Assembly: GCF_003334765.1 (NCBI RefSeq)
Contig: NZ_QOWT01000074.1
Length of the DNA stretch: 2,082 nucleotides
Strand: one strand, 5' to 3'
Source: Escherichia coli
GTDB lineage: Bacteria > Pseudomonadota > Gammaproteobacteria > Enterobacterales > Enterobacteriaceae
Shown: one piece after another, positions 1,347 through 2,082 of the stretch
How positions within the stretch are numbered: position 1 is the first letter of the stretch
How the letters are laid out: each line of letters opens with the position of its first letter
Translations under genes and position numbers: made by a program
The notes under the pieces: generated by a model
Database searches by the model: none
What the model was told of the DNA's origin: nothing
The model's input: only the letters and a program-made list of their open reading frames with translations

Positions 1347-1754
1347 ATGACTATGTACGCAAAATCCTTTATCGCTCTTGATGGCAACGGACGTCTGACG
1401 GGCGCCCGTACTGCACAGGCCGCACCTTATGCTAACTACACCTGCCACTTGTGTGGCAGTGCACTCAGATACCATCCGCAATACGAAACTGAACTTCCCT
1501 GGTTTGAACACACTGACGACAGGCTGACAGAGCACGGTCAACAGTGCCCTTATGTCAGGCCGGAGCGCAGAGAAATACAGTTGATTAAACGTCTGCAGCA
1601 ATTCGTACCGGATGCCTTACCCGTGGTGCGTAAAGCCAGCTGGCACTGCAGACAATGTCACCACGATTATTATGGGGAGCAGTACTGCACACACTGCCAG
1701 ACCGGAGGATTCAGTATTCCCCGGACAACTCAGGAGGAAATATGCGAATTCTGA
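1347..1754 (+). CDS. Cys-rich putative zinc-ribbon protein (135 aa; paralog A of a tandem pair), function unknown
   Basis: ORF track 1347..1754 (+). Conserved pattern C-HL-C-GS...PWFEH...C...W-H-C-RQ-C-xx-DYYGE-xx-C. The CxxC-x14-[W/H]F[A/E]H spacing recalls the N-terminal zinc ribbon of CoiA-like competence proteins (CxxC...HFAH); that is a motif-level resemblance only. GAGG at 1340..1343 is 3 nt from ATG 1347 but 9 nt from the in-frame ATG at 1353, so the true start may be 1353. Stop TGA at 1752..1754. Confidence 0.65.
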   Translation: MTMYAKSFIALDGNGRLTGARTAQAAPYANYTCHLCGSALRYHPQYETELPWFEHTDDRLTEHGQQCPYVRPERREIQLIKRLQQFVPDALPVVRKASWHCRQCHHDYYGEQYCTHCQTGGFSIPRTTQEEICEF

Positions 1755-2082
1755 ACTGTTATATGGCGAATGACAGCAAAGGCCATTTTGTTACGGCGAA
1801 AGAAGCTGCGAAGCACAACCGACAGGACGTTTTGTGCTGTGTGTCCTGTGGATGCCCGTTAACACTTCAGCGGGGCAATGACGGACAACCACCGTGGTTT
1901 GAACATGACCAGATGACTGTCGCTGAAAAAATCCTGCTGCGATGTACCTGGCTTGACCCGGCAGAGAAAGAGGCCCGTCGTTTGCATCTGCAGGGCATGA
2001 CGGTTCCGGATTATACGGTGAAGGTGAGAAAGTGGTTTTGTGTGATGTGTGACGAAGATTATGAGGGGGAAAAGTGCTGCCC
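1742..2082 (+). CDS. Cys-rich putative zinc-ribbon protein (paralog B; 3' end truncated by the window), function unknown
   Basis: Translating by hand from ATG 1742 gives MRILNCYMANDSKGHFVTAKEAAKHNRQDVLCCVSCGCPLTLQRGNDGQPPWFEHDQMTVAEKILLRCTWLDPAEKEARRLHLQGMTVPDYTVKVRKWFCVMCDEDYEGEKCC..., open to the window end. It aligns with paralog A at A-x-D-x-x-G-x-x-T-x-A-x-x-A, CxxCG, PWFEH, VPD...VRK, W-x-CxxC-xx-DY-x-GE-xx-C. AGGAGG at 1732..1737 precedes the ATG. The start overlaps the 3' end of paralog A by 13 nt in a different frame. An alternative in-frame ATG lies at 1763. Confidence 0.6.
   Translation, partial: MRILNCYMANDSKGHFVTAKEAAKHNRQDVLCCVSCGCPLTLQRGNDGQPPWFEHDQMTVAEKILLRCTWLDPAEKEARRLHLQGMTVPDYTVKVRKWFCVMCDEDYEGEKCC

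Follow-up and report, generated by a model that had tools for sequence, protein, structure and literature searches.

A fixed pair of predicted zinc-ribbon paralogs beside a YagK/YfjJ gene probably marks the backbone end of an SRL-PAI-type island in Escherichia coli

The backbone of the SRL PAI of Shigella flexneri contains, from orf34 to orf41, genes for Vis/AlpA, Hha and a YfjJ/inovirus Gp2 protein, an ORF listed as having no similarity, the IS66 genes L0013-L0015, and a phytase-like esterase (Luck et al. 2001, re-annotated; PMC6980539). An inovirus Gp2-like gene has been placed among the likely core functions of Pseudomonas genomic islands (bioRxiv 10.1101/2024.08.29.610337). Papers that name YfjJ, YagK or 'inovirus Gp2' list the gene only, and our literature search found no paper naming DUF3279, Zn_ribbon_11 or DUF7828, the domain families to which the small proteins described below are assigned.

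The DNA analysed here, termed the window, is a stretch of 2,082 bp from E. coli, under which RefSeq places four genes: those for a small minus-strand hypothetical protein, an inovirus Gp2 family protein, and two zinc-ribbon paralogs, A and B (Table 1). By megablast the window is matched in 3,816 of 5,426 complete E. coli genomes, with a median of two window matches per genome. The top full-length match is in NZ_AP022298.1 (99.6%), and strains 600468 and SX48 are 100% identical to the window over positions 1347-2082. The wider gene order comprises Ag43, a YfjP-like GTPase, YfjI, AlpA/Vis, Hha, Gp2, the zinc-ribbon ORFs, IS66, an esterase and fec, a setting which, judged by its genes, resembles an SRL-PAI-type integrative island.

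Here, we describe a computational analysis of the 3' end of this window and of the DNA that follows it in related loci, which are designated by L numbers. We present evidence that the window most probably (at a probability of about 0.78) ends inside an ordinary protein-coding gene, which is the second in a fixed two-gene pair of predicted zinc-binding paralogs, and that no third copy follows and the duplication is ancient.

Extent of paralog B and the DNA beyond it

The initial annotation held that paralog B runs off the window, and its reading frame is indeed open from ATG 1742 to the final base, ending ...WFCVMCDEDYEGEKCC. In E. coli chromosomes that match the window at 99.4-100% identity, the frame continues past the edge for 31 codons, PRCGTGVYSRTWGRQEVPSEDARADNPLQRL, and reaches a stop 94 nt beyond it, which gives a full protein of 144 aa and a window-equivalent end at 2176. 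This 144-aa form is annotated in L001-L004, L018, L022 and L023; in L001 it occupies 13742-14176 as a RefSeq zinc-ribbon domain-containing protein (WP_122995920.1 / WP_001221615.1). An alternative allele class of 134-135 aa continues for about 22 codons beyond the equivalent point. The expectation that B would end within about 20 codons was right in that the gene soon ends, and the shorter allele class would fit it, but the 31 codons of the 99.4-100% matches exceed it.

Table 1. Features of the window (positions in nt; position 1 is the first base)
Feature	Position	Strand	Details
Small divergent ORF, predicted CxxC...CxxC zinc ribbon and hydrophobic helix	124..327 (RefSeq 124-324)	-	RefSeq hypothetical; 5' of Gp2 in most E. 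coli loci examined
YagK/YfjJ ('inovirus Gp2 family') protein, 189 aa	524..1093	+	Pfam YagK_YfjJ_C, E 6e-48; RefSeq
Paralog A (first-position DUF7828 + Zn_ribbon_11)	1347..1754	+	135 aa from ATG 1347
Coupling junction (putative)	1732..1754	+	Shine-Dalgarno AGGAGG 1732-1737; B ATG 1742; A TGA 1752-1754
Paralog B (second-position DUF7828 + Zn_ribbon_11)	1742..2082	+	Translation; 113 codons and 2 nt, then window end
Window-end stretch	1981..2082	+	B residues ~80-113: end of inter-domain helix/linker, first knuckle C100/C103, second-knuckle C113

The motif DYEGEKCC, which lies at the window edge, had been taken for the last conserved motif of B. This proved incorrect, as the alignment of A and B extends through CPRCGTGVYS / CTHCQTGGFS. 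Near-invariant across 41 diverse homologues are C33, C36, H55 and C68, which belong to the N-terminal DUF7828 domain, and W98, C100, C103, G109, C113 and C116, the last of which lies in CPRCGTGVYS and is conserved in at least 90% of these proteins. Since C113 is inside the window and C116 outside it, the second zinc knuckle of the predicted C-terminal C4 zinc ribbon is halved by the window edge.

The description of A and B as paralogs with coupled starts is well borne out. BLASTP aligns A with full-length B at 31% identity over 118 aa (E 4e-15), and this alignment, together with the Pfam domains DUF7828 and Zn_ribbon_11 that the two proteins share, makes their paralogy real and far past chance. 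The start of B overlaps the stop of A by 13 nt. Among ten tabulated relatives the overlap is 13 nt in six and 4 nt in three, and L015 has a 51-nt gap. The overlap and the AGGAGG sequence at the junction are consistent with translational coupling. RefSeq starts paralog A at ATG 1353, which yields a 'putative zinc ribbon protein' of 133 aa. Insertion of an IS110-family element exactly between A and B uncouples the pair in a single E. coli lineage near cobU (L006 7445-9405, L021 7004-8964) and leaves both frames intact.

The initial annotation had also named what would speak against further copies, a prompt end of B with an element boundary or unrelated genes after it, and this is what was found. 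In L001-L004 and L018, about 260 bp of non-coding sequence that contains no family member separates the stop, 94 nt out, from the left end of an IS66-family element (GTAAGCG...), beyond which lie a phytase-like esterase gene and IS debris, with fecI/fecR in three loci. Alignment with the IS-free loci L022 and L023 places the IS66 insertion point about 262 bp past the B stop and the end of the conserved DNA 165-260 bp past B; in L022 the cargo that follows is for sugar utilisation, in L023 for the gentisate pathway. In other lineages the DNA 3' of B contains either an ISL3 remnant or a type VI secretion cluster along with small hypothetical genes. Because the conserved DNA ends so close to B and varying cargo follows, the conserved backbone has no gene beyond B on that side. 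Around and 3' of the pair, an Rfam scan gave no match and a promoter/terminator scan remained at background level.

In NZ_CP072204.1 (L007, 8846-9336), the BREX-1 methyltransferase gene pglX ends in frame with the final 27 codons of B (...TGVYSRAWGRQEVPSEDARADNPLQRL, then the stop), and past the join come B's usual 3' DNA and cargo of the L022 type. As read from the sequence, recombination or a deletion within B produced this join, through which PglX gains a foreign C-terminal tail.

Copy number and age of the duplication

A family HMM built from a 12-sequence alignment was run on all stop-to-stop six-frame segments of 27 loci. Exactly two adjacent same-strand copies are present in 20 of the 27 (L001-L006, L008-L011, L014-L016 and L018-L024), and loci with pairs come from E. 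coli, from Klebsiella and Moellerella plasmids, and from metagenomes. L026 has two copies with alpA between them, and L025 (CP088535.1) has two separate pairs. A single copy is found in L013, where it is a fusion gene, and in L012 and L017, both of which are cut by a contig end; L007 and L027 have zero copies by this HMM. Three adjacent copies occur in none of the 27 loci, and no degenerate remnant was detected 3' of B with filters off at E<=10. The motif check that had been proposed for finding further copies gave at most two WFEH sites per locus.

Beyond these loci, tblastn of B was run against 72,556 plasmids; among the 25 records listed, B matches two places in 19, three in none, and four in two. 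In one of the four-place records, CP088535.1, the pairs lie 6 kb apart with IS66, the esterase gene and IS5 between them, and its four family genes are the product of island accretion, not a tandem array. The record itself (41,067 bp, labelled a non-mobilizable plasmid) consists entirely of genomic-island genes, namely an integrase, CbtA/CbeA, RadC, an anti-restriction gene, an autotransporter and the two zinc-ribbon pairs, and it looks less like a plasmid than like an island that was excised or circularised, or else an artefact of assembly.

These results bear on the suggestion that a third or further DUF7828/Zn_ribbon_11 copy lies just past the window as part of a tandem array. The adjacency of A and B, with overlapping start and stop, would suit such an array, as would the up to seven places that match the A/B pair in some genomes and the four family genes on the one 41-kb record. 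However, all loci with downstream sequence have two copies followed by non-coding DNA, IS elements (IS66 or ISL3 among them) or unrelated genes, the HMM finds neither a third copy nor a remnant, several places per genome represent several islands, and the genes of CP088535.1 are two separate pairs. Moreover, the DNA-level repeat between A and B is only 19 nt long, at the PWFEH codons, and thus offers no substrate for recent amplification. The multi-copy array was accordingly given up for the loci sampled, and we consider it extremely improbable.

The duplication that gave rise to A and B appears instead to be old. In a neighbour-joining tree of ten pairs, the first-position proteins (MYAKSF...) form one clade and the second-position proteins another. 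Such position-specific clades indicate that the duplication is old and fixed, with each position constituting its own orthologous lineage. The second-position (B) proteins are the more variable and have a mosaic make-up: N-terminal ends of at least three types (MRILNCY..., MNGIKTGLG... and MQF...) are recombined with C-terminal ends of no fewer than three types, and some of these combinations are singletons in public assemblies. The first-position (A) proteins are far more uniform.

Protein family and neighbouring genes

Pfam assigns DUF7828 (PF25165) to residues 4-89 of both B (E 9e-31) and A (E 5.5e-31), in each case wholly within the window. Zn_ribbon_11 (PF11682, formerly DUF3279) matches residues 93-128 of full-length B (E 2.4e-18) and residues 96-128 of A (E 8.6e-9); its profile has 37 positions and four cysteines (CxxC...CxxC), and the window covers residues 93-113 of the match in B. 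Set against the RefSeq family (for example WP_000270978.1 and WP_001221615.1), both window genes match both Pfam models full-length. Compared with the annotated RefSeq genes the window is 99.4-100% identical, and the sole difference is the last 31 codons of B beyond the edge. On these profile matches, A and B are members of an already catalogued DUF7828 + Zn_ribbon_11/DUF3279 family, and do not merely resemble it.

The family is small: of 1.84 billion cluster representatives, 267 match it at E<=1e-3, and every named relative belongs to the Enterobacterales. NCBIfam, PADLOC and PHROGs contain no model for either A or B. A scan of GTDB species representatives, which was very pattern-specific, gave matches only in two contigs (L011 and L012) of one 'Collinsella sp.' MAG, JAIJJM01. 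L012 is a relative at 35% identity. L011 shares 98% identity with the E. coli gene, and enterobacterial contamination of the actinobacterial MAG bin is the most likely reason. Among the AFDB50 matches to a model of B, many UniProt family entries are named 'DNA-directed RNA polymerase, beta subunit/140 kD subunit', and others 'Ybl85' or 'Competence protein'. For zinc-ribbon proteins of 130-170 aa, the RNA polymerase name seems to be an annotation error that has been propagated.

Likeness to CoiA is slight. The CxxC...WFEH region of B gave non-significant matches to the CoiA N-terminal domain (PF25164, E 0.39) and DUF7830 (PF25169, E 0.077), the fusion protein P0181 described below gave E 0.1, which is also non-significant, and the CoiA nuclease domain is absent; the likeness is no more than a lead. 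A sequence search of solved structures with the pair returned noise (E>=0.28). An AlphaFold2 model from the 12-sequence alignment was discarded (pLDDT 63), and its Foldseek search against the PDB gave nothing at E<=0.001.

In the E. coli loci, the metagenomic loci L008 and L014 and a Klebsiella plasmid, the pair directly follows a YagK/YfjJ gene and shares its strand. This synteny persists as protein identity falls from 100% to about 28%, and the metagenomic relatives with YagK/YfjJ upstream share 35-45% identity. In some relatives alpA separates Gp2 from the pair, or one copy from the other. The apparent exceptions are L020, in which IS100 replaces the upstream gene, L026, for which no Gp2 gene is listed, and L015 and L016, in which a same-strand 198-aa ORF without a Pfam match occupies the Gp2 position. 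The Gp2 protein of the window has a weak Pfam match to REP_ORF2-G2P (residues 59-119, E 5e-5) and contains the motif H94-Y-H96-L-M-L-L and a C-terminal Y-L-A-K (...ADYLAKEH...), motifs of a kind that we take to be found in HUH Rep proteins. A sequence search of solved structures found no relative of YagK/YfjJ.

One locus joins the two protein types in a single polypeptide. In L013, a contig from Logan SRR28251006, one zinc-ribbon gene stands in place of the pair and encodes P0181 (454 aa; 2797-4161), in which N-terminal DUF7828 and Zn_ribbon_11 domains are fused to a YagK/YfjJ-like domain. The C-terminal domain of P0181 aligns with the adjacent 350-aa YagK/YfjJ protein over about 300 residues at 21% identity (E 5e-23), a level of identity which argues that it is not an assembly duplicate. 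The link from P0181 to the window Gp2 runs through this neighbour, which matches the window Gp2 at E 1e-7; a direct likeness of the P0181 C-terminus to the window Gp2 was unsupported (BLASTP E 2.3). A protein of Serratia oryzae, AFDB A0A1S8CN06 (466 aa), may be a second fusion of this type.

A partner gene directly 3' of B had also been thought plausible. None is present in the window's lineage, and the suggestion holds only for distant Klebsiella plasmid relatives, which have a second Gp2-type gene there. On the K. pneumoniae plasmid NZ_CP110517.1 (IncFIB/IncHI1B type; L024 4343-7741), the order is Gp2, AlpA, ZnA, ZnB, a divergent Gp2-type gene (188 aa) and DUF2913, an order in which the pair is flanked by Gp2-family genes on both sides. 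On the other side of Gp2 in the window, the small divergent ORF has weak PHROG matches (E 2.5e-5) and falls outside the A/B family; its product is predicted to be a zinc ribbon with a membrane anchor.

Possible role and relation to known islands

The fusion protein and the strict synteny point to joint action of the zinc-ribbon proteins and YagK/YfjJ. That the two work together physically is a tentative proposal, to which we give somewhat less than even odds. A and B would be made in coupled fashion from their overlapping frames and would act together, probably as a hetero-oligomer. They may then assist the Rep-like YagK/YfjJ as zinc-dependent partners that bind nucleic acid or provide specificity, and the whole would serve the maintenance, replication or mobilisation of integrative islands of the SRL-PAI / CP4-57 type. 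We infer this mechanism as a whole, from coupled synthesis to island maintenance, with confidence a little short of one half. A more specific version is doubtful: YagK/YfjJ and the two position-specific zinc-ribbon paralogs could form a three-component HUH-Rep-like machine that replicates or mobilises excised P4-integrase-type islands (SRL PAI, CP4-57-like, Ag43/fec), with the mosaic second subunit setting DNA-site or partner specificity.

Two other roles have to be weighed against this partnership. Ogr of phage P2 and Delta of its satellite P4 are small zinc-finger activators, and by analogy A and B could be stand-alone zinc-finger transcription regulators of island genes that act independently of YagK/YfjJ. 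Their small size and cysteine richness, in an island with AlpA/Vis-type and P4-type integrase functions, would suit such a role, as would the position of alpA within the cluster in some relatives. However, Pfam scans of A and B that retained every domain at E<=10 found neither an Ogr/Delta-type family nor any known DNA-binding family, and both the P0181 fusion and the strict synteny favour YagK/YfjJ as the partner; independent regulators therefore seem unlikely. Less probable still is that the pair is defence or anti-defence cargo, for instance a sensor or inhibitor directed against phage or host restriction, rather than part of the backbone. Anti-restriction, RadC and toxin-antitoxin genes do occur in these islands, an HNH/ScoMcrA gene lies nearby in L010 and a UvrD-like helicase in L009, BREX is joined to the B remnant in L007, and a mosaic, variable second-position protein is what arms-race selection might produce. 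Against this, PADLOC-DB v2 matches none of A, B, Gp2 and the small ORF at E<=0.01, A and B have no PHROG matches, the family was not found in 50,697 phage records, and the pair keeps a fixed place beside YagK/YfjJ in the conserved, not the variable, part of the island.

The feature that drew attention to the window edge is thus an ordinary one, the truncation of a gene that is already annotated, and there is no array of the kind hoped for. What the edge cuts into appears nevertheless to be an old, fixed, position-specific pair that marks the conserved-backbone end of a very common class of E. coli/Shigella islands (about 70% of complete E. coli genomes). The synteny and the natural fusion further provide a testable lead, namely that the zinc-ribbon proteins are partners of the uncharacterised, Rep-like YagK/YfjJ and form one functional unit with it.

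Relative to the K-12 proteins YagK and YfjJ of the cryptic prophages CP4-6 and CP4-57, the upstream neighbour in the window belongs to the same family, and the backbone is of the same AlpA/YfjI/YfjP type; the K-12 CP4-44 region yielded no DUF7828/Zn_ribbon_11 copy in the family HMM scan. The correspondence with the SRL PAI extends to gene order. Compared through the published ORF table, and not through nucleotides, the window loci match its order from AlpA/Vis to the esterase, which is reversed in the table. Further downstream, the E. coli loci also have fecI/fecR. One difference stands out: the two zinc-ribbon genes of the window take the place of a single ORF (orf38) that the SRL PAI table gives as 'no similarity'.
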